A DNA stretch of 47,388 nt, taken from the IMG/VR virus record IMGVR_UViG_2558860288_000006; one strand, 5' to 3'. The position numbers and the translations under genes were made by a program. Every line of letters starts with the position of its first letter. Position 1 is the stretch's first letter. The DNA comes from a virus (lineage: Duplodnaviria; Heunggongvirae; Uroviricota; Caudoviricetes). A model generated the notes under the pieces. It was not told the DNA's origin, made no database searches, and worked only from the letters and a program-made list of their open reading frames with translations. Of the stretch, positions 6,869-34,901 are shown piece after piece.

Positions 6869-8029
6869 TTATTCAACCTCTTCTAAACTGCTCACTCTGG
6901 ACCCTCGGCGGAAATTATCATCATTTTTAACATACTCGTATGAATCCAGAATCAAACCAGATATGCGAAGTATATCTTCCGGATTAGTTATATGTATCCT
7001 TTTACCATCCGTATCAAGTCGAGCTCGTCTTATTTCATTCAACTGAACTTCACTAAGCGAAATAGGTAATGTTATAAATGAAGATTTTTTATCATAAAAT
7101 CTTAACAGCCATCTATTAGTTTTACCATTCAATAGTACACCAAAATATGACTCAGTATCTTTATATTCTATATTATCTTCTGTTTGTATGATTTGTTTTA
7201 CCCTTTCAAATAGTTCCAATTCTTTGGCTGTGGTTATTATGTTGGGGTTTTCTTCATCAACAATGGCGTTATTAACTTGTGTATCCGTTGCATCATTTTC
7301 TTTAGTTTGCTCTACCGGTTGTGTAGATAGCCCGGAAACCACCATTGCGCTAACAGCGCGCTCAACGGCCTGTTTAACTAATGGAGTCACGAACTCAAGA
7401 AATCTCTGATTAAGTTGTCTCTCAATATTTGAACGACTAGCAACATATCGAACAAACTCCAGATCAACTTCACGAAGACTAGAACTGATTGTTTTAGTAA
7501 ATGAATTCAAATAAACACTTTCTTCAGCCAGTGTCCGCAAAGCCTCTGGTTTGAATTTATCATAACGAAAACGAAATAATTGTGTAATATCGGAGTGAGT
7601 TAGAGAATCCATTCTTATTTTTAAAAACGGCGTTGAATCCATTATGTTTTTTTGTTTCAAATCCGTAAAAAAACGCCATTCAACACCATTTGTAATGGCT
7701 GATATAGTAACTTCCGGTGTTGAATTAAAATATCTTGATAGCTGTGGGCAGTGATTATCAATTTGTTCTGAAAACGATTTCGCCTCAATGAACATCACAG
7801 GAACATCATGACAAAATAAAGCGTAATCAACCCGTTCATTAGCCTTAACCCCGGGGAAGTCAGCACTATACTCAGCTTTGACTTTTCTTGGATCATACGG
7901 AGTAAAACCAAGAATATCTAGAAATGGCATAATGAGTGCTTGTTTTGTCGTTTCTTCAGTTGTACAAAACACCCCCATTTTTGCAACATGCTCTGTGTGT
8001 ATTTTTAACTTATTTGCAAAATTTTCCAT
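6869..8029 (-). CDS. PD-(D/E)xK nuclease-domain protein (type I restriction HsdR N-terminal / Mrr-like fold) with uncharacterised C-terminal region
   Basis: Motif block ...TKQALIMPFLDILGF...ERVDYALFCHDVPVMFIEAKS (Asp73, Glu87-x-Lys89 in track numbering); AT-rich; inserted between baseplate W-like and J-like genes; ATG at 8029 has a GGAGG SD, alternative ATG at 8044. Confidence 0.6.
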   Translation of the reverse strand: MENFANKLKIHTEHVAKMGVFCTTEETTKQALIMPFLDILGFTPYDPRKVKAEYSADFPGVKANERVDYALFCHDVPVMFIEAKSFSEQIDNHCPQLSRYFNSTPEVTISAITNGVEWRFFTDLKQKNIMDSTPFLKIRMDSLTHSDITQLFRFRYDKFKPEALRTLAEESVYLNSFTKTISSSLREVDLEFVRYVASRSNIERQLNQRFLEFVTPLVKQAVERAVSAMVVSGLSTQPVEQTKENDATDTQVNNAIVDEENPNIITTAKELELFERVKQIIQTEDNIEYKDTESYFGVLLNGKTNRWLLRFYDKKSSFITLPISLSEVQLNEIRRARLDTDGKRIHITNPEDILRISGLILDSYEYVKNDDNFRRGSRVSSLEEVE

Positions 8030-8179
8030 GCTTGTCTCCTCCATGGTAACAATATGTATTTTGCAAATCCGAAATAATATATGTCAATATGCTCCAGCTT
8101 AGAAAATTACTCGCCCCCCCTAAAATATCTCTCTACAGCACTCCAAACCAAGGTAAAAGTTTTATCATAAAACTGTGAT

Positions 8180-21321: not shown

Positions 21322-22135
21322 GTTTGCCCTTCTCCGTTAAAAATTCGTCGGGTAGTTTCTGAGGGGCGTAGATCGGCAGAGCATCGCAACTGCAATAAAC
21401 CTCCTCCCCGGCAGCAGTGATTTCGTCATAAAAACCATATACGGGCTTAATAAGCCCCTGCTCCAGCGCCCACGAATCGCGGAGGAGATAAATTTTCTCG
21501 TCGCGCTCTTTGTGGTCCTGTCGGTATTTGTAGCCCGGACGCCGCCAGTTAGAATGCCAGCGCAGAGCAATCGCACCACTCTGAACAGCCAGCAGATACT
21601 TAACGTTGCTCGCCAGCTTATGTCCCTGGTCAATTGCCACCCGGCGACTGATAAAATCCATATCCTTCACGGACTTCTGAAAACCGGACTTCACTTCCCG
21701 GCGATCAATTTCGCTCACCCCGTCAGGCGGAATGGACGTAACCCATCCCTGAAAACGCTGTATGGTTTTCTCGATAGCCTGTTCGCGGTTGAGTTTTATC
21801 AGGTTGGCACTGGCGAAAATTCGCCTGTCGAGTTCCTTACGAAACTCAGGTTTCAGTTTTTCAACAGTGATTTTTTTAGGGCCATCAGGAGGCTGATCCC
21901 GTAATGCCCCGCCGTCGATGACAAGACGGCTGTAGATAGCGGTGAGATGTTTTCTGGCTACGGTATCATCAGGGGTTTCTCGCTGAGCGGCTACACGGAG
22001 TTTCCGGCACCATTCGAGCAATGATTTTTCGCTATCCCACCCGTGATTTACGTAGTAGTTAACGGCATCCGTCAGAACCTCATACAGCGTCCTGATCCGT
22101 TTCTTCTTCCTCACCGCCCGGCTGGAAATTGCCAT
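21302..22135 (-). CDS. Head morphogenesis protein (minor head, F-like position)
   Basis: 277 aa from ATG at 22135 with an AGGAG SD; lies between portal and scaffold genes; overlaps the portal 3' end by 56 nt. Confidence 0.4.
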   Translation of the reverse strand: MAISSRAVRKKKRIRTLYEVLTDAVNYYVNHGWDSEKSLLEWCRKLRVAAQRETPDDTVARKHLTAIYSRLVIDGGALRDQPPDGPKKITVEKLKPEFRKELDRRIFASANLIKLNREQAIEKTIQRFQGWVTSIPPDGVSEIDRREVKSGFQKSVKDMDFISRRVAIDQGHKLASNVKYLLAVQSGAIALRWHSNWRRPGYKYRQDHKERDEKIYLLRDSWALEQGLIKPVYGFYDEITAAGEEVYCSCDALPIYAPQKLPDEFLTEKGKREFNRA

Positions 22136-23516
22136 CAGGCGTCTCCTGCTTCGGTGGTTCATAATTCGCCAGCGCGTCCACATCAATGATGAGTGGAGCT
22201 TCGCCATAGGTTTGCGTGGCATTAACAAGGCTTGCCAGCCATTCAGTGACGGCGGCACGGTTTTCAGGATCAACCTGTGGCGACACGGCAGAGAAAAGTG
22301 CTATCGCCTGTTGAATCACTTTACTGTCGCTTTCCCGGCGTTTGTCCGGCGACTCCTCCACCAGCTCCTGCCATGTCGCGGTAAATTCACGTCGCCACTG
22401 GTAAAACGTGGTTTTATAGTCATCAGTTATGATGTCCGGGTAATCATTTTTCAGCGACTGATAAAATTCCTCGTTCCAGGCGATGTACTGCACCAGGCGT
22501 TCGAAATAATCCATCACAGGTTCAATCTGCTGGCGTACACCATCGATATACTGGCTGATAGCTTTCGAATCCTCAGTTCCTTCACCGAAACCATTCGAGA
22601 AAGCCTCCTCCTTGATGAGAATCGCGGGAACATCGCTACCTGATGCAATATCAGAAATAATGTTGTCGCGGGCGGCATTTAGCGCGCCATCGATGTTTTG
22701 TAAATTCAGCGAGGTAACGTCCTCATCCTTCCCGATACTAAGCACACCTTTATTTTTTGCCTCTTTGACATTTTCCCTTTTTCGTCCCGTGGCGGCAGCC
22801 ATGATCCCGTCAAGTTTCGAACCATACTGCACAACTTTAGCCACCAGTACGCCTGCCTTCTGGCTGACGAGATCATTCGCCTCCATCGTATTGATATAGG
22901 ATTTCAGGGAATAAAGAACACGCTGAAACACGCTTCGCCCGGTGAATCCGAACGATGAACTCTGAAACTCCAGATAAATCGGTGTGCCATTGAAAATTTT
23001 CAGTGTGCGTGACGGATGCCAGTCTTTTCCGCCAATCTTCAGCTTTTTATTGGCTTCCTGGAAAAACGGGCTGTTTGGGTTCTGGTCAGTCACCATCGAA
23101 CCAGAAGCGTTCAACGGGTCCCACGCGTTGATATACACATCATCTTCTGTCAGTCCGAATGTCGGAAGCGGCTCACGACATGGAACACTGTCGGTGCCCA
23201 CGCCGATCGCTGCGGCACCGTAGCAACGAGACAGAAAAAACAGATTTTTAATCTTCTCGTTAACCTTCATACGTTCCCATACCTCCTGGAAACGCCGCAC
23301 AACCCGCTCGTCAGGGTCTGTCTCCACGTTGTACTGACGCGGCTTACACATCGCCATAAGTATGGGTTTTTCGACAAGTTTTCCGCCCAGAGGATGGAAT
23401 TGCCACAGCAGCTTACACAATTCATAGCCAATATCGGTTCCCGGCTGAATTTCTTCAGCCTCAAGAATACGCATCAGTGCTGAACCGAGGCCGCCAGTAA
23501 TCTCGATCTCTGCCAT
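22080..23516 (-). CDS. Portal protein
   Basis: 478 aa ORF immediately downstream of the large terminase gene; acidic C-terminus; ATG at 23516 (the track start at 23519 is a TTG codon). Confidence 0.55.
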   Translation of the reverse strand: MAEIEITGGLGSALMRILEAEEIQPGTDIGYELCKLLWQFHPLGGKLVEKPILMAMCKPRQYNVETDPDERVVRRFQEVWERMKVNEKIKNLFFLSRCYGAAAIGVGTDSVPCREPLPTFGLTEDDVYINAWDPLNASGSMVTDQNPNSPFFQEANKKLKIGGKDWHPSRTLKIFNGTPIYLEFQSSSFGFTGRSVFQRVLYSLKSYINTMEANDLVSQKAGVLVAKVVQYGSKLDGIMAAATGRKRENVKEAKNKGVLSIGKDEDVTSLNLQNIDGALNAARDNIISDIASGSDVPAILIKEEAFSNGFGEGTEDSKAISQYIDGVRQQIEPVMDYFERLVQYIAWNEEFYQSLKNDYPDIITDDYKTTFYQWRREFTATWQELVEESPDKRRESDSKVIQQAIALFSAVSPQVDPENRAAVTEWLASLVNATQTYGEAPLIIDVDALANYEPPKQETPDGNFQPGGEEEETDQDAV

Positions 23517-23534
23517 CAAAAATATCCTGATTTT

Positions 23535-24863
23535 TTACAACGCCGCGTAATTACCGTGCGCGATGATCAACCCATAGGTGTAACAATCGAAAAGGTCATC
23601 AGCACGTTTATGCGCGTTTTTATCCGCCAGGTGGAATCCGGCGATTTGTTTTATGAGGTGGTTTGCGGTGGTACGTTTGAATGAAACGGTCTTGTCGTAA
23701 GCCTCCCGGACGATTTTGCACATCCCCTGATAGTGGTAGCTGGATGCCATCACCGCCCGTTCGTCTTTACCTTTGCTGGTTAGTGCCGATTTAATCGGCG
23801 TCATATCCCAGCCTTCGGTTTCCGCCTTCTGGTTGAGGATTGCCCCCATCGCGGCGTCTTCCATAAAAATGCCCTGGCAGCCCAGACGCGGACGGCATAA
23901 TTTCGCGAGGCGCTCGAGGTTGTCATAAACGCCGGGGATATATTCAGGAAGCAATGACGCTTTAATTTGCGTCACATCCCAGTCAATAATCGTCAGTTTT
24001 GGCTCGTCCGAATACGTTGACTCATAAGCGAAATACACCACGCCAGTACCATCATTTTCGGTCCCGCCTTTCAGCGCCGTATCCATCACTGCGAAAATCA
24101 TGTCGCAGTACGGCGGCATCTCAATCGGCTGACCGTCCACCAGCAGCTTATCGACATCGAGTAACGCGTCTTTGGACCAGTCCACGAACTCTGCAAGATA
24201 TTCCTGCTGCCAGACGCGCGGATCGGATTTCTTCTCCGTTTCCTCCAGTTCTTCTTTCGGAATATACGGATTCGATGAAGTTGGCGCATGGTGCATGACA
24301 AATCCCAGGGATTCATCGTGGCATATCGCGTAGAAAAAATTGCTCTCGTCGATACCGTTTGGTGTGGAAAATACCCACGCACAGCCGCGGTAATCGACAA
24401 GCGTCGGGCGTATAGCTCGGGGCCAGATTTCCTCGAGCATTTCCGGCGATTTAGTGAATGCTGCCTCATCAATCAGCACAGCGTGATATTTACGCCCACG
24501 CCCGGCCAGTTTGTTATTGTCCGTTACCCAAAAGTCGATGCGCCCCCCATTACGGAGAATAATGCGCTTTTCATTTTTTGACTGGCTGAGGATCAGCGGT
24601 TGCAGAACGGCGCTAATTTCATCCCAGATTTCCTGGTACTGGCGGTATTGTGCGGTAAAAATCCCCACCCTACCCGCGATAAGTTGCCCGGTGGTAGGAA
24701 CGGCAAATTTCCGCGTAGCGAAACTGGTAGCGATGTTTACCAGCATCACCGTTTTACCCCAGCGACGACCACAGCATACCGCGTGGAAGCGTTCCTCTAT
24801 TGCCGCCGTCCATGCAGCTATTTGCCCCTCATGAGGTTTTGGGAGGTAGATTTCAATCGACAT
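23535..24863 (-). CDS. Terminase large subunit
   Basis: Walker A CGRRWGKT near the N-terminus, Walker B-like VLIDEAA, acidic nuclease-domain residues; 442 aa. Confidence 0.8.
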   Translation of the reverse strand: MSIEIYLPKPHEGQIAAWTAAIEERFHAVCCGRRWGKTVMLVNIATSFATRKFAVPTTGQLIAGRVGIFTAQYRQYQEIWDEISAVLQPLILSQSKNEKRIILRNGGRIDFWVTDNNKLAGRGRKYHAVLIDEAAFTKSPEMLEEIWPRAIRPTLVDYRGCAWVFSTPNGIDESNFFYAICHDESLGFVMHHAPTSSNPYIPKEELEETEKKSDPRVWQQEYLAEFVDWSKDALLDVDKLLVDGQPIEMPPYCDMIFAVMDTALKGGTENDGTGVVYFAYESTYSDEPKLTIIDWDVTQIKASLLPEYIPGVYDNLERLAKLCRPRLGCQGIFMEDAAMGAILNQKAETEGWDMTPIKSALTSKGKDERAVMASSYHYQGMCKIVREAYDKTVSFKRTTANHLIKQIAGFHLADKNAHKRADDLFDCYTYGLIIAHGNYAAL

Positions 24864-25944
24864 TATCCACTCCCGGCATCGGCAGAGAGTTGTGGATAAT
24901 TATTTCGTTATTCTCACCACCCACGCCTTTTTTGAGGTTTTCAATCTCAGTGCGCAGCTTTTCGTTGCGAAGCCTCAGTCCTTCAAGCTCCAGATCATTG
25001 CGACTGTCAGTTGCACCACCAGCAGAACTTCCTTTCGTCGCCATTATCAGCTTGATAAGTTCGCGCCGGGCGGCAGCCTTATCCTCCAGCAGGATCTCAA
25101 CACCAAATTTCCCGAGCTTTGCCCCTGCATATAATTGTCGCGCATCCCCATCAAGCAGAGTGGTATCAGCCATATAAAGCTGTCCCGTTCCCTCACCGCA
25201 GCACTTCGGACAATCCGGATTGGGTATGGCGTTATCAACAAAGCCGAGGCCTCCATATTCCGGCTCGGGTTTGCCATCTCTGGAGGCCTGTGCCGCTGCC
25301 TTATCGAATTCTGCAATATCACGCCACTGGTAGAGATGATTCTCGCCCCAGCAATAACGGCAGTTAACACGGCGAAATTGTGCCAACTGATTGGGGTCGG
25401 CCTGGACAATAGCCATCAACTGACTCACCAGTAAATCCAGGTCTGCGGTATAGCGTTTCTGATACTGATTGCGGAAGTAGCTGATAGCACGATAAACCCT
25501 GGCATTTCTAAGCATACGGCTGGCGTTGCTGTTAGCTGTCGCACCTTGCCCCTCATAACCAGCCAGTCGGTATGCCTCTGTCGGCTTTTTCCCCTGAGCA
25601 ACAAGCATCGCAAACTTAGCCTGCTGGTCAGAAATGCCGAATTCATCGGGGCAGAACGAAAATTCCTCCGCGTCGCCCTCATTCAGGCACGCATCGGATA
25701 CTGGCTTTTTTTTCTGAGATTTTCCGTTCCGCTTTTGCGCAGTCTGCGCAGATTTTTTCTGCGCACTTTGTTGCGCAGTTTTGCGCATTTCTGTCTGCGC
25801 ATTTTTCGGAGGTTTTTTGATGTAACGACGGGCTGTTGCGTAATTCAGTCCCCTTGCCTCACACCATGCCACCGGAGATACACCGGAGCGGGTGTATTCA
25901 GCAATATATTCCTGCTGCAACGCCCCCCAGTCCGGTCTGCTCAT
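24853..25944 (-). CDS. Terminase small subunit (DNA-binding)
   Basis: 363 aa ORF directly upstream of and overlapping the large terminase gene; N-terminal HTH-like segment GVSPVAWCEARGLNYATARRYI; basic linker. Confidence 0.5.
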   Translation of the reverse strand: MSRPDWGALQQEYIAEYTRSGVSPVAWCEARGLNYATARRYIKKPPKNAQTEMRKTAQQSAQKKSAQTAQKRNGKSQKKKPVSDACLNEGDAEEFSFCPDEFGISDQQAKFAMLVAQGKKPTEAYRLAGYEGQGATANSNASRMLRNARVYRAISYFRNQYQKRYTADLDLLVSQLMAIVQADPNQLAQFRRVNCRYCWGENHLYQWRDIAEFDKAAAQASRDGKPEPEYGGLGFVDNAIPNPDCPKCCGEGTGQLYMADTTLLDGDARQLYAGAKLGKFGVEILLEDKAAARRELIKLIMATKGSSAGGATDSRNDLELEGLRLRNEKLRTEIENLKKGVGGENNEIIIHNSLPMPGVDNVD

Positions 25945-25947
25945 CAG

Positions 25948-26199
25948 TTAGTCCTGATTTTTATCCACCCTGAGTAGTTCACGCAGGGCAAAGGCATCCC
26001 CTTTTCTGGCAAGCTTAAACAATGCCGCCCGTAGTTCGGCTTCACCTTTCGCTCTGCCCTTACGGATGGATGCGTAAAAATCTGTCATTGCTTCCCGATT
26101 TTCTTTCAGTCGGTTCAGATCAACATCCAGAACGTCAGCGATTTGTTGTGCAGTCATCCGGCACGCTGCCAGAGACTCGACTTTCGAATACGGAATCAT
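25948..26199 (-). CDS. Small HTH-like DNA-binding protein
   Basis: 83 aa with SD before the ATG at 26199; segment MTAQQIADVLDVDLNRL resembles an HTH; 4 nt upstream of the small terminase gene. Confidence 0.4.
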   Translation of the reverse strand: MIPYSKVESLAACRMTAQQIADVLDVDLNRLKENREAMTDFYASIRKGRAKGEAELRAALFKLARKGDAFALRELLRVDKNQD

Positions 26200-27067
26200 T
26201 TGTCACCCCCATTGATATGCAGGGTGTCTTCTTCCTGTATTTTTCGTGAAGGATTTTTACTGCAGCGTTGTTCCAGGTGACCTGATGGTGAATGCGTTTA
26301 TGGCTGGCCCCCATCAGTGAGATTTTTACGCACGAGGGCGCATACATGACGGAGTAAAAACTTTTAACGTAGGTTCCGGAATCCAGATACAGCTCGGTCA
26401 TTCCGCCGCTGTTTTTCTGCGTCTGTTTCTGCCCTAACTGGACAGCACCGATCGTCATAAACAATTCACCACAGCGACCGAGATTCGTGTACGTATTCAC
26501 ATCCTCGTTAATGCGCCCCATGAATGAGAACGGTCGATCAACCGAACAGATAAAGCTGTTCATTGCCTTGCGTTTCACCCACGAAGCATGGCCGCCATTG
26601 TCACCAAGAAAATCCCCGCCCTGCGACATAGCGATGGAAAGCGCAGGTATTGATTCGTAGTACGCCAGCATTTCAGAAAGGATCGCATCCAGTTTTCTTA
26701 TCGGGAAATAGGCCTGGTCATAGTTGCGATCCACCCGAAACTGGAACTCGTGATAATCATCATCGAGCTGAATGAAGTATTTACACCCGACCAGTTTTGC
26801 CAGGTCGAAACAGGCATTACGGGCGTAAAAAATTGAGCGGCGATCACCGAAATTATCGGCTTCGTCAAAACGACTGGCTATATCGGCTTTGGAAAACACC
26901 AGCACCTGTTCACCAAATTCAGCTATGTACTGATGCCGTGTCTTATCTTCATCATCAACAACGATAAAAACTTTTCCGGTATAGCCAGCACGACGCAACG
27001 TCCGGTAAGTCAGAACTTTGTCCGGGCGCCCGTGAGTCAGAATAAAGGCGCAAAAATCATCACGCAT
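26135..27067 (-). CDS. DxD-motif protein, possibly GT-A-like glycosyltransferase
   Basis: N-terminal strand-helix-strand pattern FILTHGRPDKV...KVFIVVDDED and later FIQLDDDYHEF (DxD-type acidic motif); ATG at 27067 preceded by a GGAGGAGGAGG SD. Confidence 0.35.
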   Translation of the reverse strand: MRDDFCAFILTHGRPDKVLTYRTLRRAGYTGKVFIVVDDEDKTRHQYIAEFGEQVLVFSKADIASRFDEADNFGDRRSIFYARNACFDLAKLVGCKYFIQLDDDYHEFQFRVDRNYDQAYFPIRKLDAILSEMLAYYESIPALSIAMSQGGDFLGDNGGHASWVKRKAMNSFICSVDRPFSFMGRINEDVNTYTNLGRCGELFMTIGAVQLGQKQTQKNSGGMTELYLDSGTYVKSFYSVMYAPSCVKISLMGASHKRIHHQVTWNNAAVKILHEKYRKKTPCISMGVTNDSVFESRVSGSVPDDCTTNR

Positions 27068-27851
27068 ATTCCTCCTCCTCCCCGCCATGCATGATCTCCA
27101 CCATGCGCTGCGTCATCCGGACAAATCCATTTTCAATAGCCTGCTGATAATCAATGATCACCAGCGCCGACTCCTCAAAAAGGTTCTGAATTTCAGCGGG
27201 GGCGTGAGCGTAATAGTCCGCAATTCTGCTGAAATTAAACACCGTGTGACGTTCTGCCGCGCACAGGAGGAATTTTTCGATATCAGGCTCAAGGGACGCC
27301 GAACGTATCCGGCTGACCAGCTCCTGAGTTTTCGTATCGTCGCACAGTTCACTGATATCCGGTTTATCGCCTGACGGCTCATAAACAGGCGTATCAATTT
27401 TCGTCGTGTACGGCTCCTCCTCATTTCCTGTACCTGGCAAAACATCCGTCAACAATTCATCAATTTCTGTTGGGCTGAATCCTGTCAGGGAGACATCAAA
27501 ATCAGCATTGATTAGGTCCGACAGCTCCATCCGTAACAGATCTTCATCCCAGCCAGCATTCATCGGCAGGCGATTATCTGCCAGGCGGTACGCCTTTTTT
27601 TGGTCATCCGTCAGACCAGACAGAACAATGACCGGAACCGAATCCATTTTGAGCACTTCAGCCGCCATAACACGACCGTGACCCGCAATAATTTCGCCCT
27701 TTTCATCAATCAGCACTGGATTAGTCCAGCCGAATTGCTTAATGCTTTCTACCAGTTGTGCCACCTGCTCAGGGCTGTGTGTCCTGGCATTGTGTGCATA
27801 CGGAGATAGTTCTTGTAACGGGCGATAGACGATCTTCAATTTCTCGCTCAT
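27060..27851 (-). CDS. ParB-like nuclease-domain protein
   Basis: N-terminal ParB/sulfiredoxin-type block ...YRPLQELSPYAHNARTHS...WTNPVLIDEKGEIIAGHGRVMAA...; 263 aa. Confidence 0.65.
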   Translation of the reverse strand: MSEKLKIVYRPLQELSPYAHNARTHSPEQVAQLVESIKQFGWTNPVLIDEKGEIIAGHGRVMAAEVLKMDSVPVIVLSGLTDDQKKAYRLADNRLPMNAGWDEDLLRMELSDLINADFDVSLTGFSPTEIDELLTDVLPGTGNEEEPYTTKIDTPVYEPSGDKPDISELCDDTKTQELVSRIRSASLEPDIEKFLLCAAERHTVFNFSRIADYYAHAPAEIQNLFEESALVIIDYQQAIENGFVRMTQRMVEIMHGGEEEEYA

Positions 27852-28451
27852 ACAGCCTCGCTTTATGAATAAAAAAGCCCACTATCGGCCAGTGCGCTGG
27901 GTGCGCGGCGGGTGCTGATAACGAGCTTTGACATTATCGCAGCCCCTCACACTGAAGGGCTGCTGTAATGCCTGTTACTCACAAATCAAACGAGCATGCT
28001 GACCACTCATTTCAATGCGTAAGTATTGTGGCTTGCCGTCAATCAACGCGGTGATTAACTTGTCACCTGTAGGTGTCCACATAATTTTCTCCTGTTTTAA
28101 TGCCCCTTGCCGCCAGGCAGTTGATCAAAGTTCATCTTGATTCGGCAAGATTTAGAATGAATAAGATAAAATTGGCACACGCAGCAGAATTTCATACTTT
28201 CCGGACGCTGACGCACCCTTCATTTTTCAGCAAAATATTCTGCTATTACAGGCGATCAGTTCTGCATACACTGCCGAACACCGTCGACAATTTCACAAAC
28301 CTGAGAAGATGTATCGAAAAGCTGGCGCGCCTTATCCAGACTGACGCATCCCGCCAGAAAAAAGGCACCAGTATCGCTACCAGTGCCCATTTCGCCGCCG
28401 TTCGCGGCATTCTGTGTGTCCAGTGTTTTCTGCTCATAACACACCTGGTTA

Positions 28452-28829
28452 TCAGCGTTTCAACTGAAAGTGAGGCCCGTCTTTCAGTGTTTTCCAGTCC
28501 CCGCCCCATTCGATGGCAGTTCCCAGCTCTGCGGCAGCCTGCTTAAATGCCTGCGCGATTTTCTCGTACAGAGGCCAGTCCCATGACACCTGGCTGCCAA
28601 CCCAGGCAACAACATCCACCGCATCACCGGTCAGGTGGCGGCTGTTCATGGTCTGGCTTTTCCCTTCCGCGACCAGCTGTTTCTGGCGTTCTTTCGTGCG
28701 CAGCCCTTCCGTAATACCGAAATCAACCTCCGTCAGCTCCAGCGCACGGCGAACGACAGCAACCAGCTGTGGTTTAACGCCCTCCAGATTTTTTTCACTG
28801 CGACGGCTGAATCTGAATTTACCCGACAT
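28452..28829 (-). CDS. Endolysin, peptidase M15-type (L-alanyl-D-glutamate endopeptidase family)
   Basis: Zn-peptidase motifs NSRHLTGDAVDVV and GGDWKTLKDGPHFQL; ATG at 28829 follows a GAGGTG SD (the track start at 28835 is GTG). Confidence 0.65.
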   Translation of the reverse strand: MSGKFRFSRRSEKNLEGVKPQLVAVVRRALELTEVDFGITEGLRTKERQKQLVAEGKSQTMNSRHLTGDAVDVVAWVGSQVSWDWPLYEKIAQAFKQAAAELGTAIEWGGDWKTLKDGPHFQLKR

Positions 28830-29664: not shown

Positions 29665-30408
29665 TTATTCTTGAGTAACACTTAAACTCATCTCATTGAA
29701 TGCAGCCATCCTGTAACCTGCCGGTGTAACACCAAAATAACTCCTGAATACGCTGATAAAATAAGATGTAAAATTATAGCCGCACTGAGCAGCGATTCTG
29801 TTGATGGCGCAACGAGATTGACTCAACAGCATTGCTGCCATTCTCATTCTCTCTGTAAGCAACAACTCACTGAAACAGGTGCCTTCTTCTTTCAGTCTTT
29901 TTTTTAACAAACTTTCACTGATACATAACCGCGAAGATACATCTCTCAGAGTCCAGTTTGCTGCAATGTCCGTACGAAACAATGCACTAAGCCTGTCACT
30001 AATATTGCTAATACACGCGGTCAGAAACGACGAAAACATTTTCTCTGATGAGAAAAACGCCAGACACGAAAAGGAAAGCATTTCCGCTAAATTGTCCGTA
30101 TGAATCTTTTCCTCACAAAGATAATCAATCAGGATGCCCATCAATTCTGCCTTGGGAAAACTCACGCAAAGATATCGTGGTATTTGCCGGACTAAAACTA
30201 CATCCTGTTTTTCGTCTCCACACAACAGGTAACGGCTAATTGTCGATTCACTGAGACTTATTCGCCGAAAACATTCCGAAAAGGGCAATAACGATCCAGC
30301 CCCCCCCCTGACAAGAAGTGCACTACCACTTTCAAGAGAGAGCTCTTTTCCTTCAAAGAGCACAACAAACGGGGAATGAACAAAAACAACAGAACAGGCT
30401 TCATTCAT
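29665..30408 (-). CDS. AraC-family transcriptional regulator (AppY-like cargo gene)
   Basis: C-terminal dual-HTH signature ...WTLRDVSSRLCISESLLKKRLKEEGTCFSELL...AAQCGYNFTSYFISVFRSYFGVTPAGY; AT-rich; ATG at 30408, because the track TTG start at 30561 lies inside the terminator. Confidence 0.7.
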   Translation of the reverse strand: MNEACSVVFVHSPFVVLFEGKELSLESGSALLVRGGAGSLLPFSECFRRISLSESTISRYLLCGDEKQDVVLVRQIPRYLCVSFPKAELMGILIDYLCEEKIHTDNLAEMLSFSCLAFFSSEKMFSSFLTACISNISDRLSALFRTDIAANWTLRDVSSRLCISESLLKKRLKEEGTCFSELLLTERMRMAAMLLSQSRCAINRIAAQCGYNFTSYFISVFRSYFGVTPAGYRMAAFNEMSLSVTQE

Positions 30409-30530
30409 ATCAATTGCCCTGACATTACTGGTCACAAGATAAGTATATATCGATTTACAAAAATACAAGCCGAAAGACCAGTATTCGCAACCACCAGCAC
30501 GTTTTATGTTCTCTGCCGTTTTTCGGACAT

Positions 30531-30553
30531 AAAAAACCCGCTCAATGGCGGGT
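30531..30553 (-). terminator. Intrinsic terminator downstream of the Q-like gene (tR'-like position)
   Basis: On the minus-strand mRNA: ACCCGC-CAUUGA-GCGGGU followed by UUUUU, about 85 nt after the Q-like stop. Confidence 0.5.
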
Positions 30554-30637
30554 TGTATCAAAGTTCATGCGCTTGGTTCGCCTCGCGATACAGCTTTGCG
30601 AAGCATAGCAAAATTGAAGCAGTTTATACGTAAGAAA

Positions 30638-32895: not shown

Positions 32896-32952
32896 ATGAA
32901 ATCAATCAGAAAGGCGATCCATAAGAACAATAGACAGATAAAGGATAGTCAG

Positions 32953-34314
32953 ATGCAAACAGCAGAGATGTTTCGAAATTTTTTGAACAATTTGAAAATT
33001 TCAGACGAACGTATGCAGGCAATTGCAACACATTATAAAAATGCCACAAGAAGACTTAACATCGAGTTTCGGGGGGTAGCGAATGGATTCAACAATCGAT
33101 TGAAAGTCGGTTCAGCAGGTCGCCGAACAGCGGTTAGCAAAACATCAGACTTGGATATGCTGTATATTATGCCCGCGAGATTGTGGGGAGATTACCAATC
33201 CGGTGTTAATCCACAGCGCCGTTTGCTTCGCGATGTAAAAGAAGCATTAAAACTATCTTTTACCCAGCAAGAGATCAAGGTTGATAGATTAGTTGTACAA
33301 ATCATTTTTGACTCTTTTCATATAGAGGTGCAACCAGTTTTTGAGACTGATGAAGGGCATTTTAAATATCCTGATACTAAGGCCAACGATGGTAATGGAG
33401 GGTGGCGAGTAACTAAACCTCGGATGGAAATTACCGAAATGAGAAATTTCCGTAATAACAAAAGTAGTAATCTTCATAATCTTTGCCGCATGTTAAGAGC
33501 CTGGAAAAATAGAAACACCGTTGATATGGGGGGGCTTCTCATTGACACATTGGCTTGGAGATTTCTGAAACAAACAGATGATTATGATAATACCGGAATG
33601 GTCAGTTATGGGCTTATGTGTCGAGACTTCTTTGACTTTTTGCATCAAGAAGATGTCCATGAACATTATGCAGCGATAGGAAGTGTGCAGAGAGTTAAGG
33701 TCTATAGAAATTTTCAGCGGCAAGCAAAACGAGCCTTTAAATTATGCACAAAAGCGATTGAAGCTTATGAGAATGGCTCGACAAAGAAATGCCACGAACA
33801 CTGGCGAGAAGTTTTTGGGCTAACTTTCCCTAAAGCAGTTGTAGAAATGCGTGACTCTCAGGGGTTAGAGTCAGCTAATTTCATCAATGAGTCCTATACG
33901 GCTCAGACGTGGCGCAATACGGAAGAGTTTACAGATGAAAAGTTTGATGATGTTGATATAAGATACCCCCTCGAAGTTAACTGCATTGTCAAAGAAAACG
34001 GGTATAGGGACCGTGCAATTAGGGCTTACCTGTCGGATATGGCTCGTTATTGGTTACCACCGAATAGAACTTTATCATTTTCGATCAACCAAGCAAGTTT
34101 GGATATCATTCCTGAGCCTTATGATATTTACTGGAAAGTACTGAATAGAGGTTTAGAAGCTGAGCAGCGTGATGAAGTTCGAGGTCAAATAGTTTTAGGT
34201 CAAGTAACTCACACTGAACATACAAAATTTAGAGGTGATCACAAGGTTTGGTGTTACATAGTTAAGAACCATATAGTAATTGCCCAAAACGTTATCGACA
34301 TACCAATCGAGTAA
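32953..34314 (+). CDS. Nucleotidyltransferase, Pol-beta superfamily (CD-NTase/SMODS-like signalling enzyme candidate)
   Basis: Active-site pattern ...KVGSAGRRTAVSKTSDLDMLYIMP... (GS, DxD) and a later acidic strand ...VVQIIFDSFHIE...; ATG at 32953 has an AAGGA SD (alternative ATG at 32896 gives 472 aa); AT-rich, plus strand. Confidence 0.65.
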   Translation: MQTAEMFRNFLNNLKISDERMQAIATHYKNATRRLNIEFRGVANGFNNRLKVGSAGRRTAVSKTSDLDMLYIMPARLWGDYQSGVNPQRRLLRDVKEALKLSFTQQEIKVDRLVVQIIFDSFHIEVQPVFETDEGHFKYPDTKANDGNGGWRVTKPRMEITEMRNFRNNKSSNLHNLCRMLRAWKNRNTVDMGGLLIDTLAWRFLKQTDDYDNTGMVSYGLMCRDFFDFLHQEDVHEHYAAIGSVQRVKVYRNFQRQAKRAFKLCTKAIEAYENGSTKKCHEHWREVFGLTFPKAVVEMRDSQGLESANFINESYTAQTWRNTEEFTDEKFDDVDIRYPLEVNCIVKENGYRDRAIRAYLSDMARYWLPPNRTLSFSINQASLDIIPEPYDIYWKVLNRGLEAEQRDEVRGQIVLGQVTHTEHTKFRGDHKVWCYIVKNHIVIAQNVIDIPIE

Positions 34315-34319
34315 TTATC

Positions 34320-34901
34320 ATGCAAAAAAATGACTTATTATCTCAGATTGCCTCTGCCGGATATAATGTTGGATTTGGCGCTAAGAAAAATTTTGCTACA
34401 TTTGATATTGTTAGCAAACTCCCTGGCTGGATTGGTATTATATCACTAGCAGTCTCTATTTTAGGCCTTTATATGGATGAAATGAGTTCTAAGAATATTG
34501 CAGCCATTTTTATCATTTTAAGCATTGGCAGTTTGTACATCAATTTCTATGATGGTGATAAAAATAAATATGAAGAGGCTGGAAAGAAGCAAACAGCAAT
34601 CTTTAGAAAGATTGAAAGATTGTATTACGATGCAAAATCAGAAAGCGAACCGGATTCTGTTAAATATATTGGGCAACTTGACATTCTGTTAAAAGAATTT
34701 GATGAAACCACTATCACCAAACAAATTTGTGGAAGCAATTGGTATGCTCATTATAAATTCTTTAGTGAAATGGAAAAAAGGTGGCTTGAAGATCAGTTGT
34801 CATTGACTTTCTGGAAGGATAAAGTCCCTAACACTTTGAAATTTCTCATTCTGATAGTTTTCTGCGTCGTTTTGCTTTCGATAATTTATAGGTGTGGTTG
34901 A
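34320..34901 (+). CDS. Small membrane protein with three predicted TM helices (candidate effector)
   Basis: 193 aa; hydrophobic helices WIGIISLAVSILGLYM, IAAIFIILSIGSLYINF and C-terminal FLILIVFCVVLLSIIY; start 5 nt after the NTase stop (operon). Confidence 0.6.
   Translation: MQKNDLLSQIASAGYNVGFGAKKNFATFDIVSKLPGWIGIISLAVSILGLYMDEMSSKNIAAIFIILSIGSLYINFYDGDKNKYEEAGKKQTAIFRKIERLYYDAKSESEPDSVKYIGQLDILLKEFDETTITKQICGSNWYAHYKFFSEMEKRWLEDQLSLTFWKDKVPNTLKFLILIVFCVVLLSIIYRCG

Follow-up and report, generated by a model that had tools for sequence, protein, structure and literature searches.

The window, the whole 47,388-nucleotide stretch analyzed here, carries four adjoining genes on the minus strand, all of them present where the first-pass annotation had placed them. 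A ParB/Srx-type gene (positions 27060 to 27851; 263 amino acids [aa], pI 4.45) was identified from its open reading frame (ORF) and from matches to Pfam ParB_N and PHROG 620. It is followed by a gene for a TAGT-family GT-A glycosyltransferase (26135 to 27067; 310 aa; Pfam PF20691, PHROG 842), a small basic ORF (25948 to 26199; 83 aa; PHROG 309), and the TerS gene (24853 to 25944; Pfam Terminase_2, PHROG 51), which marks the downstream boundary of a ParB-terminase locus. The TerL gene (23535 to 24863; Pfam Terminase_6N, PHROG 2) and, 3' of it, the portal gene (22080 to 23519) come next on the same strand.

Two candidate starts, at 27088 and 27067, exist for the glycosyltransferase gene, which ends at 26135. 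The ATG at 27067, which is also the PGAP start and gives the 310-aa product, is preceded by a Shine-Dalgarno sequence, GGAGGAGGAGG, and overlaps the stop codon of the ParB-like gene (27062 to 27060) by 8 nt; together these elements make up a translational-coupling junction at positions 27060 to 27080 of the minus strand. The two genes abut or overlap in related loci too. PGAP annotates the partner gene as ynaK-like and splits it artificially, and we found nothing functional in the literature on ynaK. A promoter and terminator scan of positions 25800 to 28600 gave no promoter above the shuffled expectation, and the cassette is most simply regarded as part of the late operon. In the near-identical region of E. 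coli GmM062, this prophage has the integrase gene intR. The small ORF between the TAGT and TerS genes, previously called HTH-like, had no match in Pfam, NCBIfam, or PDB. It is basic (pI 9.25), and PGAP starts it at Met15, which gives 69 aa. It matches PHROG 309, "terminase small subunit" (1.7e-22), and was recognized only in Enterobacterales loci, save for one weak match in locus L016 (E value, 9e-5).

The first-pass annotation had guessed, from the strings FILTHGRPDKV, KVFIVVDDED, and FIQLDDDY, that the protein of about 310 aa is a GT-A glycosyltransferase with a DxD motif. All three strings were found, and the guess was right by profile, fold, and motifs. The match to PF20691 reached 120.8 bits against a cut-off of 27.5 and covered profile positions 4 to 205 of 205, while PHROG 842 matched at an E value of 3.7e-103. 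The protein folds as a GT-A (nucleotide-diphospho-sugar transferase) enzyme, and its DxD follows strand beta-4 (DDD; 26756 to 26764, minus strand) and is conserved in homologues. Residues R14, D103, D104, K167, D189, and K235 are invariant among 102 nonredundant homologues, in which position 188 is either E (86) or D (16). These residues agree with the R...DDD...ED(Y/F) motif set described for DNA GT-A enzymes (bioRxiv 10.1101/2023.12.21.572611), except that the third motif reads EDV instead of EDY/F. A C-terminal extension (RIHH...W) is conserved as well and lies outside the Pfam model. The PGAP product name is "GREB1-related"; no solved relatives of the TAGT were found, and PADLOC gave no match to it.

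The earlier ParB/Srx assignment of the 263-aa protein, which contains KGEIIAGHGRVMA, was likewise confirmed by its Pfam ParB_N and PHROG 620 matches. The Pfam match (PF02195) is marginal (E value, 1.4e-6; 28.7 bits against a cut-off of 26.3), the PHROG 620 match has an E value of 1e-89, and the PDB profile matches are ParB/Noc/Spo0J N-domains at 1e-4. From the AlphaFold model (pLDDT, 70 to 90) and the PDB profiles, a ParB/Srx nucleotide-binding-type domain was assigned to residues 1 to 95 (27567 to 27851, minus strand). Within it, residues 57 to 60 (27672 to 27683, minus strand) form a GHGR P-motif, in keeping with the G-x-x-R of the ParB/Srx fold. G57 shows no variation, and only 79 of 92 nonredundant partners have kept the Arg of the P-motif. 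Over residues 10 to 145, the protein resembles ParB-methyltransferase fusions at their N-terminus (PADLOC MTase_II, 1e-38; PHROG 498, 3e-51), the only part of the methyltransferase model that PADLOC matched; other phages have this N-module fused to type II DNA methyltransferases. Nothing supports the label "nuclease" given earlier to this domain, for which we found no evidence on either side. A partition ParB of the ParABS type was considered as a candidate and rejected: there is no ParA in the annotation and no HTH family match, and TIGR00180 scored 37 bits against a cut-off of 58.

C-terminal to the ParB/Srx domain, the AlphaFold model places a helix-helix segment (residues 103 to 134) and then a linker that is predicted to be disordered (27357 to 27416, minus strand; pLDDT, 33 to 37). 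This linker carries the conserved motif EPYTTKIDTPVYEPSGDKPD, with the general form Y-[ST]-x-K-[IV]-x-x-P-x-Y. Among 106 nonredundant partners, Y148 and Y157 are each present in 105, and P155 and a hydroxyl residue at position 149 (T in 86, S in 20) in all. The remainder is a helical C-domain (residues 166 to 255; 27087 to 27356, minus strand), which was delimited from alignments and is specific to TAGT-linked partners. Its motifs are FLxxAAxRHxxF, IAdYYAH, and LmExSALVIiD, and R201, A211, Y214, and D234 are invariant. No Pfam family covers the C-domain, and the search for solved relatives returned only noise at E values of >0.05; it occurs in 1,198 representative clusters, always C-terminally. 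The ParB domain is missing in three loci (L021, L108, and L111), where the C-domain alone lies 5' of the TAGT gene. The universal part of the partner is the linker motif plus the helical C-domain, not the ParB domain. In the model, an NBD and the helix-helix segment precede the disordered linker and a C-terminal domain; a DNA-binding domain is lacking. The AlphaFold models of the two proteins come from shallow alignments (mean pLDDT, 62 and 66) and are reliable only for TAGT residues 1 to 150 and the ParB N-domain; since the C-terminal halves are unreliable, no conclusions were drawn from them. The partner is acidic (pI 4.4 to 5.2), and the TAGT is basic (pI of about 9).

The partner adjoins the TAGT in 187 of 187 related loci (107/107 fetched via the TAGT and 80/80 via the partner C-domain), an adjacency far beyond chance. 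The paired loci range over Enterobacterales, Bacteroides, Lactobacillus, Nocardia, and a haloarchaeal virus, with hosts from E. coli to Haloarcula, and the pairing holds down to 28% TAGT identity (Porphyromonas phage). The TAGT of the T4-like phage phiAS5 has no partner within 4 kb. A natural fusion, P0341, joins the TAGT, ParB_N, and C-domain in one protein. Distances within the TAGT correlate more closely with those of the C-domain (Mantel r, 0.63) than with those of ParB_N (0.28); as judged from these sequence comparisons, the C-domain co-evolves with the TAGT. The full cassette is present in 867 of 5,426 complete E. coli genomes, and the related loci contain no third gene conserved with it. 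E. coli strains GmM062 and W carry the cassette. TerL lies at most 3.5 kb downstream of the TAGT in 157 of 175 related loci. The large terminases near the cassette belong to the Terminase_3, Terminase_6, and GpA families and are accompanied by several small-subunit types. In phage c5 the cassette comes directly after the cos site, and in Vibrio phage pv27 it sits among replication genes.

A genomic link to a source of hydroxymethyl-pyrimidine (a TET/JBP dioxygenase, or a thymidylate-synthase-like hydroxymethylase with an alpha/beta-glucosyltransferase), as would be expected of a DNA-type TAGT, was not seen here. Neither a TET/JBP enzyme, a thymidylate-synthase-like hydroxymethylase, nor a methyltransferase was found among the prophage genes scanned or annotated, in the flanks of distant loci (63 proteins), or in the annotation of phage c5 (complete genome, 31.8 kb). 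A 5-hydroxymethyl-pyrimidine of a known kind, made by the phage itself, cannot be the acceptor. Because the enzymes that make the hydroxymethyl "handle" are missing, any route to DNA glycosylation is not one that has already been worked out. All DNA glycosyltransferases known to us attach the sugar to such a hydroxyl on DNA, so DNA glycosylation by this cassette would need either unprecedented chemistry or an unrecognized step. Some loci have occasional inserted genes, namely, a His-phosphatase plus cytidylyltransferase-like fusion and SAM methyltransferases, which would suit donor synthesis or sugar tailoring. For phages c5, LL-Ku, phi jlb1, NTR1, and HHTV-2, we found no paper dealing with DNA modification.

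We propose, with moderate confidence, that the cassette is a phage module for DNA glycosylation, self-contained, expressed late, and of the ParB-terminase locus type; it probably puts sugars on phage DNA with the assistance of the ParB-like protein. In favor of such a module are the family membership, fold, and motifs of the enzyme, the strict pairing, the co-evolution, the natural fusion, and the place before the terminase genes. The methyltransferase-type N-module of the partner, its architecture like that of the dioxygenase activator ParB176 (PMC13229309), the genes inserted in some loci, and the basic and acidic pI values of the two proteins also speak for it. The TAGT would be a DxD-dependent nucleotide-sugar glycosyltransferase acting on phage DNA and would be made together with its obligatory acidic partner through translational coupling. 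The linker motif and C-domain of the partner may bind and activate the basic TAGT, and the ParB/Srx N-domain may help it to work on double-stranded phage DNA when this is packaged, in parallel with the ParB activators of phage thymine dioxygenases. The resulting sugar mark could protect the packaged genome from host nucleases at the next infection. DNA as the acceptor, the partner as an activator, and the anti-restriction role are what we infer from these features. The first-pass annotation had left the choice between a packaging-accessory set and a DNA-modification or anti-restriction module; the modification option gains support and is plausible, if unproven, and the support for the packaging option is positional. 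Tentatively, we also suggest that the ParB-partnered TAGT clade might place the sugar straight onto a canonical base, or onto some other native position in DNA, with no hydroxymethyl intermediate, in which case the partner C-domain and its Y-[ST]...P-x-Y motif might be part of a composite active site or a priming intermediate.

The acceptor might instead be protein, a serious rival reading that we nevertheless consider less probable than DNA glycosylation. The TAGT would then sugar the hydroxyls of the Y-[ST]-x-K-[IV]-x-x-P-x-Y motif of its own partner, in a glycogenin- or O-GlcNAc-like manner, or else a packaging or virion protein of the late operon. The invariant hydroxyl at position 149, flanked by the nearly invariant Y148 and Y157 in a linker predicted to be disordered, is consistent with such a target, although a conserved linear motif is equally explicable as a docking peptide for the TAGT. 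The cassette adjoins terminase, portal, and capsid genes, no pathway for a DNA hydroxyl donor was found in the genomes and loci scanned, and one family member, GREB1, O-GlcNAcylates protein (PMC7968844). On the other side, the R...DDD...ED motifs fit DNA-modifying GT-A enzymes, the partner N-module is one attached to DNA methyltransferases, and the precedents act on DNA, both the ParB-dioxygenase pairs (PMC13229309) and the ParB-Tls loci as described in PMC6536676 and PMC4738411. Besides the missing hydroxyl-making enzymes, the observations that count against DNA glycosylation as such are the strong acidity of the partner and its want of a DNA-binding domain, the loss of the P-motif Arg in 13 of 92 partners, the three loci without a ParB domain, and the protein-glycosylating relative GREB1 (PMC7968844).

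A conventional role, in which the TAGT acts on pre-existing 5hmC or 5hmU, or on a sugar thereon, supplied by an unrecognized phage enzyme or by the host, appears unlikely. The search of the prophage, the 63 flanking proteins, and phage c5 for a TET/JBP or thymidylate-synthase-like gene was negative, and no third gene travels with the cassette; moreover, we know of no common host-made hydroxymethyl base for hosts from E. coli to Haloarcula. Nevertheless, many small phage ORFs still have no annotation, some thymine dioxygenases need no partner (PMC13229309), and the characterized TAGT- and JGT-type enzymes all use such acceptors (PMC13216743; bioRxiv 10.1101/2023.12.21.572611). Still less probable is a packaging accessory that leaves no covalent mark, in which the ParB-like protein would mark or cleave the region where packaging starts, with the GT-A protein as a nucleotide-binding cofactor of the terminase. 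The place of the cassette immediately 5' of terS/terL in about 90% of loci and right after the cos site in phage c5, as well as the PHROG 309 match of the small downstream ORF, would fit this role. However, large terminases of at least three unrelated families, and small subunits of several types, are found with the cassette, a portability that one would not expect of a specific packaging cofactor; neither the catalytic DxD nor the other conserved active-site residues vary, and Vibrio phage pv27 has its cassette amid replication genes. To our knowledge, most phages with the same terminase types do not have the cassette. That the ParB homologue has a partition function and the sugar transferase is an unrelated neighbor is highly improbable; database names such as "chromosome (plasmid) partitioning protein" and "ParB-like partition protein" speak for it, and the intR integrase gene, the late-operon place, and the strict pairing with the TAGT speak against it.

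Solitary TAGT genes, unaccompanied by an alpha- or beta-glucosyltransferase gene, were found in 288 of 753 TAGT-encoding phages, and their function is undefined (PMC13216743, 2026). In another survey, about 65% of phage glycosyltransferase contigs had no dioxygenase or thymidylate synthase nearby and were for that reason set apart as "less likely" to be DNA-acting (bioRxiv 10.1101/2023.12.21.572611). Our analysis defines a large, coherent subset of the solitary genes, spanning Bacteria and Archaea; its members keep to a fixed pre-terminase place, come with an obligatory partner, and can be recognized by a diagnostic motif and domain. If the module acts on DNA, the principle of a ParB-activated DNA-modifying enzyme would be extended from dioxygenases to glycosyltransferases, perhaps with new DNA chemistry; were glycosylation direct, this would amount to a new chemical class of DNA modification, one carried by prophages in a sizeable fraction of E. 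coli genomes. If protein is modified instead, the cassette would represent a phage post-translational system of a new kind. The cassette sits in an easily inducible Rac-type prophage, and both outcomes lend themselves to direct tests in E. coli.

Among the members of the TAGT family is the T2/T6 enzyme, from which glucosyl-hydroxymethylcytosine receives a second glucose. The window TAGT shares PF20691, the GT-A fold, and R...DDD...ED with this beta-glucosyl-HMC-alpha-glucosyltransferase and with the kinetoplastid base-J glucosyltransferase. Like the window enzyme, the T2/T6-type enzymes are phage encoded, and their known acceptor is a hydroxyl on modified DNA. However, the window TAGT falls in a separate clade, with 23 to 26% identity to TAGTs of T4-like phages by tblastn, in which the T2/T6 TAGTs were not retrieved at an E value of 1e-3. 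Its clade, unlike the phiAS5 TAGT, is always paired with a ParB/C-domain partner and, unlike the T2/T6 enzymes, occurs in genomes without a hydroxymethyl-base pathway. GREB1, a 1,949-aa eukaryotic protein reported to O-GlcNAcylate the estrogen receptor (PMC7968844), has a homologous glycosyltransferase domain in animals but neither a ParB partner nor a phage context.

The first-pass annotation could not place a sugar transferase next to a ParB-like domain in any known pathway; in fact, it can be placed alongside ParB-activated dioxygenases (PMC13229309) and the ParB-terminase large subunit (ParB-Tls) locus described in PMC6536676 and PMC4738411. ParB-like proteins activate phage thymine dioxygenases on double-stranded DNA, some of these enzymes being active alone, and the survey in the same study tied ParB to dioxygenase-containing pathways (O'Toole et al., PNAS 2026, PMC13229309). 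In the 5mYOX176/ParB176 pair, ParB176 has the architecture of the partner described here (NBD, helix-helix, unstructured linker, C-terminal domain, and no DNA-binding domain); this likeness is one of architecture and of adjacency to the cognate enzyme. In both systems the residues of the NTP motif are not strictly needed or conserved, and both the ParB-dioxygenase pairs and the window cassette are often near terminase genes. The enzyme of the window is a glycosyltransferase, with no dioxygenase present, whereas 5mYOX176 is an Fe/2-oxoglutarate dioxygenase. The ParB-Tls locus of Iyer et al. 2013, as cited in PMC6536676 and PMC4738411, is a predicted packaging-coupled DNA modification system. 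As there described, it uses the same genomic slot, with a ParB-like gene, a modification gene, and then the terminase, and in the window a modification gene does lie between the ParB-like gene and the TerL gene. Its predicted logic, by which phage DNA is modified around packaging, is also the one proposed here. Finally, ParB-DNA-methyltransferase fusions have the same ParB N-module as the window partner; their cargo is a fused methyltransferase, whereas the cargo here would be a sugar transferase, engaged through a dedicated adaptor domain.

The DxD-motif protein encoded at 27067..26135 (minus strand) is a clear member of PF20691, the "TET-associated glycosyltransferase" (TAGT) family (Pfam E value of 9.9e-35, domain full-length), and also belongs to PHROG 842. 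Across 102 non-redundant homologues, residues R14, D103, D104, K167, D189 and K235 are invariant, and the conserved residues match the R...DDD...ED motif of DNA-modifying phage GT-A enzymes and of the base-J glucosyltransferase (bioRxiv 10.1101/2023.12.21.572611). The GT-A-like fold tentatively proposed in the first-pass annotation was correct. That annotation had also flagged a ParB-like gene beside the DxD gene, and this pairing proved real. We collected 107 loci by TAGT similarity (27 species-representative genomes and 80 viral contigs), and a homologue of the 263-aa ParB-like protein (27851..27060, minus strand; hereafter, the partner) is encoded directly upstream of TAGT, on the same strand, in 107/107. 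The 27 species-representative loci (50 to 60% identity) include Bacteroides, Dysgonomonas, Desulfovibrionaceae, Prosthecochloris, Lachnospiraceae, Saccharibacteria, Opitutia and Hyphomonadaceae. When 80 viral loci were collected via the C-terminal domain (C-domain) of the partner, TAGT was found downstream in all of them, adjacent in 72 and with one gene between in 8. The pair is also present in cultured viruses, namely, haloarchaeal HHTV-2, Lactobacillus gasseri phage phi jlb1, L. delbrueckii phage c5 and Nocardia phage NTR1, and cultured Porphyromonas phages keep the partner although TAGT identity is only 28%. No partner was found within 4 kb of the TAGT of phiAS5, a T4-like phage whose TAGT is a T2/T6-type relative. 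Overall, the gene pair is a very widespread variant within an already known kind of phage module.

The window is an Escherichia coli Rac-type lambdoid prophage. E. coli GmM062 matches the 1.9-kb region holding the two genes (the cassette) at 100% identity. Of 5426 complete E. coli genomes, 1566 carry this region at 90% identity or above, 867 of these in full length, and ten phage records have it at 96.7 to 96.8% identity. On the minus strand, a Q-like antiterminator, an AraC-like gene, two holins, an M15 endolysin and a gap of ~600 bp precede the ParB-like gene, which is followed by TAGT, a small basic ORF (26199..25948), TerS (25944..24853), TerL (24863..23535) and the portal gene (23519..22080). 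The AraC-family regulator (HTH_18/HTH_AraC; 29665-30561, minus strand) sits at the head of the late operon, between the antiterminator and holin genes. In the stretch that separates the lysis genes from the ParB-like gene (27852-28255, minus strand), we observed a 35-aa ORF (MWTPTGDKLITALIDGKPQYLRIEMSGQHARLICE), e.g., at 27975-28081, with a good AGGAG ribosome-binding site, as well as a weak hairpin and then a T-run ~20 nt ahead of the ParB start.

Elsewhere in the prophage, a two-gene CBASS-like defence moron lies in the early region (32896-34901, plus strand), with a low G+C content of 0.36 to 0.41 and on the strand opposite to its neighbours. Its products are an oligonucleotide cyclase of the SMODS/AGS-C type (PADLOC Cyclase, 7e-157; 472 aa) and a 2TM effector, SLATT_6 (PADLOC, 8e-78; 193 aa). 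At this position the GmM062 prophage, near-identical in other respects, carries "beta family protein" and "sce7726 family protein" genes instead. The portal gene (16133-17569 in locus L001; Pfam Phage_portal_3, 1.9e-12) bears the PGAP name "anti-CBASS protein Acb1 family protein," which looks like a misleading family label that stands out beside the CBASS moron of the same prophage. Within the tail/baseplate module, a low-G+C patch (0.36) harbors a gene (6869-8044, minus strand) for a 391-aa protein in which only one domain of type I restriction R subunits is present, the N-terminal one (HSDR_N, 9e-14). PADLOC gives no match for this protein, and its gene may be a moron.

At the junction of the cassette genes, GGAGGAGGAGG precedes the TAGT start at 27067, which is also the start chosen by PGAP. 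From this start, the TAGT ORF shares 8 nt with the end of the ParB ORF, indicating translational coupling. PGAP/RefSeq splits the ParB ORF (L001 21113-21904, equivalent to 27060-27851) into a "ynaK pseudogene, missing C-terminus" and a 167-aa CDS. Nevertheless, the ORF is intact and the DNA is identical in L001, with no stop or frameshift; we infer that the split is an artefact, produced by annotating with the truncated ynaK model of K-12. In many E. coli protein entries (P0023, P0036, P0041-P0045, P0202, P0206, P0207 and P0232), the first 60 to 75% of TAGT or ParB (96 to 98% identical) runs into the C-terminal domain of a tail-fibre, tail-fibre-assembly, Lom or terminase protein. We read such joins as probable deletion junctions left by the decay of Rac-type prophages, comparable to the truncated K-12 ynaK.

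The partner is predicted to comprise four parts: a ParB/Srx N-domain, a helix-helix segment, a disordered linker and a helical C-domain. With a pI of 4.45, it is strongly acidic, in contrast to the basic TAGT homologues (pI about 9). The N-domain matches Pfam ParB_N barely above threshold, PHROG 620 at 1e-89 and ParB/Noc structures in the PDB at 1e-4, and residues 1 to 145 are a very good match to the N terminus of ParB-DNA-methyltransferase fusions (PHROG 498, 3e-51; PADLOC MTase_II, 1e-38). As seen in the alignment of distant loci, the most conserved section is the linker motif, Y-[ST]-x-K-[IV]-x-x-P-x-Y-E-P, together with the helical domain and its motifs FLxxAAxRHxxF, IAdYYAH and LmExSALVIiD. 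P155, R201, Y214 and D234 are present in 106/106 non-redundant partners, as is T/S149 (T in 86, S in 20), and Y148 and Y157 each in 105/106; in contrast, the ParB P-motif arginine is found in only 79/92. Three loci (Vibrio phage pv27, a Lachnospiraceae contig and L108) have the motif and C-domain alone ahead of TAGT. Among 1.84 billion representative proteins searched, 1198 clusters have the C-domain, which is always C-terminal; among the matches listed, most proteins have 250 to 300 aa and some 130 to 200 aa. In P0341, a protein of 534 aa, TAGT, ParB_N and C-domain are naturally fused. In Mantel tests on pairwise-identity matrices from 87 loci, TAGT correlated with the C-domain at 0.63 (maximum over 300 permutations, 0.27) but with ParB_N at only 0.28, and the C-domain correlated with its own ParB_N at 0.34, indicating that TAGT evolves jointly with the C-domain, as one unit, and that the ParB domain is a looser accessory.

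Downstream of distant cassettes lie small and large terminase subunits of differing families, including Terminase_3, Terminase_6N and GpA among the large and P22 gp3-like and Sf6-like types among the small. TerL is at most 3.5 kb downstream in 157 of the 175 loci with enough sequence, and phage c5 has the order cos, ParB, TAGT, two small ORFs and TerL. Upstream neighbours are heterogeneous replication genes. Occasionally, a histidine-phosphatase and cytidylyltransferase-like fusion or a class-I SAM methyltransferase is encoded between partner and TAGT. In L142 (4332-5327), L129 (1509-2342) and L026 (3581-5275), an additional enzyme is encoded between the cassette genes or as a fusion with them, L026 encoding a TAGT-methyltransferase fusion and then a second TAGT. 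These enzymes hint at donor synthesis, unusual donors or glycan tailoring (di-glycans).

The most economical reading, held with middling confidence, is that the cassette encodes a ParB-assisted DNA glycosyltransferase expressed alongside the packaging genes. The chemistry is where this reading is weakest: the DNA glycosyltransferases known so far require a hydroxyl, which these genomes appear unable to make. Neither a TET/JBP nor a thymidylate-synthase-like family was found among the upstream neighbours of distant loci, among those genes of the prophage that were scanned or carry an annotation, or among the annotated genes of phage c5, whose genome (31.8 kb) is complete. A conventional TAGT role, with hydroxymethyl bases supplied from elsewhere, seems improbable. 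The main rival, itself rather unlikely, is that TAGT glycosylates protein, possibly on the invariant hydroxyl residues of the partner's disordered motif, for which GREB1 offers a precedent and the structural similarity to SunS and glycogenin further support. A pure packaging role of the cassette is more doubtful than either, and a partition role of the ParB homologue is very improbable; as a partition ParB, the partner is ruled out by having no HTH domain, no ParA partner and a score under the TIGR00180 cut-off. The cassette is directly testable in E. coli.

Solitary TAGT homologues of undefined function have been described in many phages (2026, PMC13216743), and most phage GT contigs are without an adjoining dioxygenase or thymidylate synthase, with ParB-like and terminase neighbours mentioned just in passing (bioRxiv 10.1101/2023.12.21.572611). 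Our literature search found no experimental work on the ParB-partnered TAGT clade. As relayed in PMC6536676 and PMC4738411, Iyer et al. (2013) described a ParB-terminase large subunit locus with methyltransferases or other DNA-modifying genes between the ParB-like and terminase genes, and proposed that the ParB protein directs modification during packaging; in that account, the layout is the same as in the window, where the cargo is a glycosyltransferase. ParB-like proteins have been shown experimentally to be required activators, on double-stranded DNA, of one subclass of phage thymine dioxygenases, with NTP-motif mutations having little effect (O'Toole et al. 2026, PMC13229309), and the partner described here shares the architecture of these activators.
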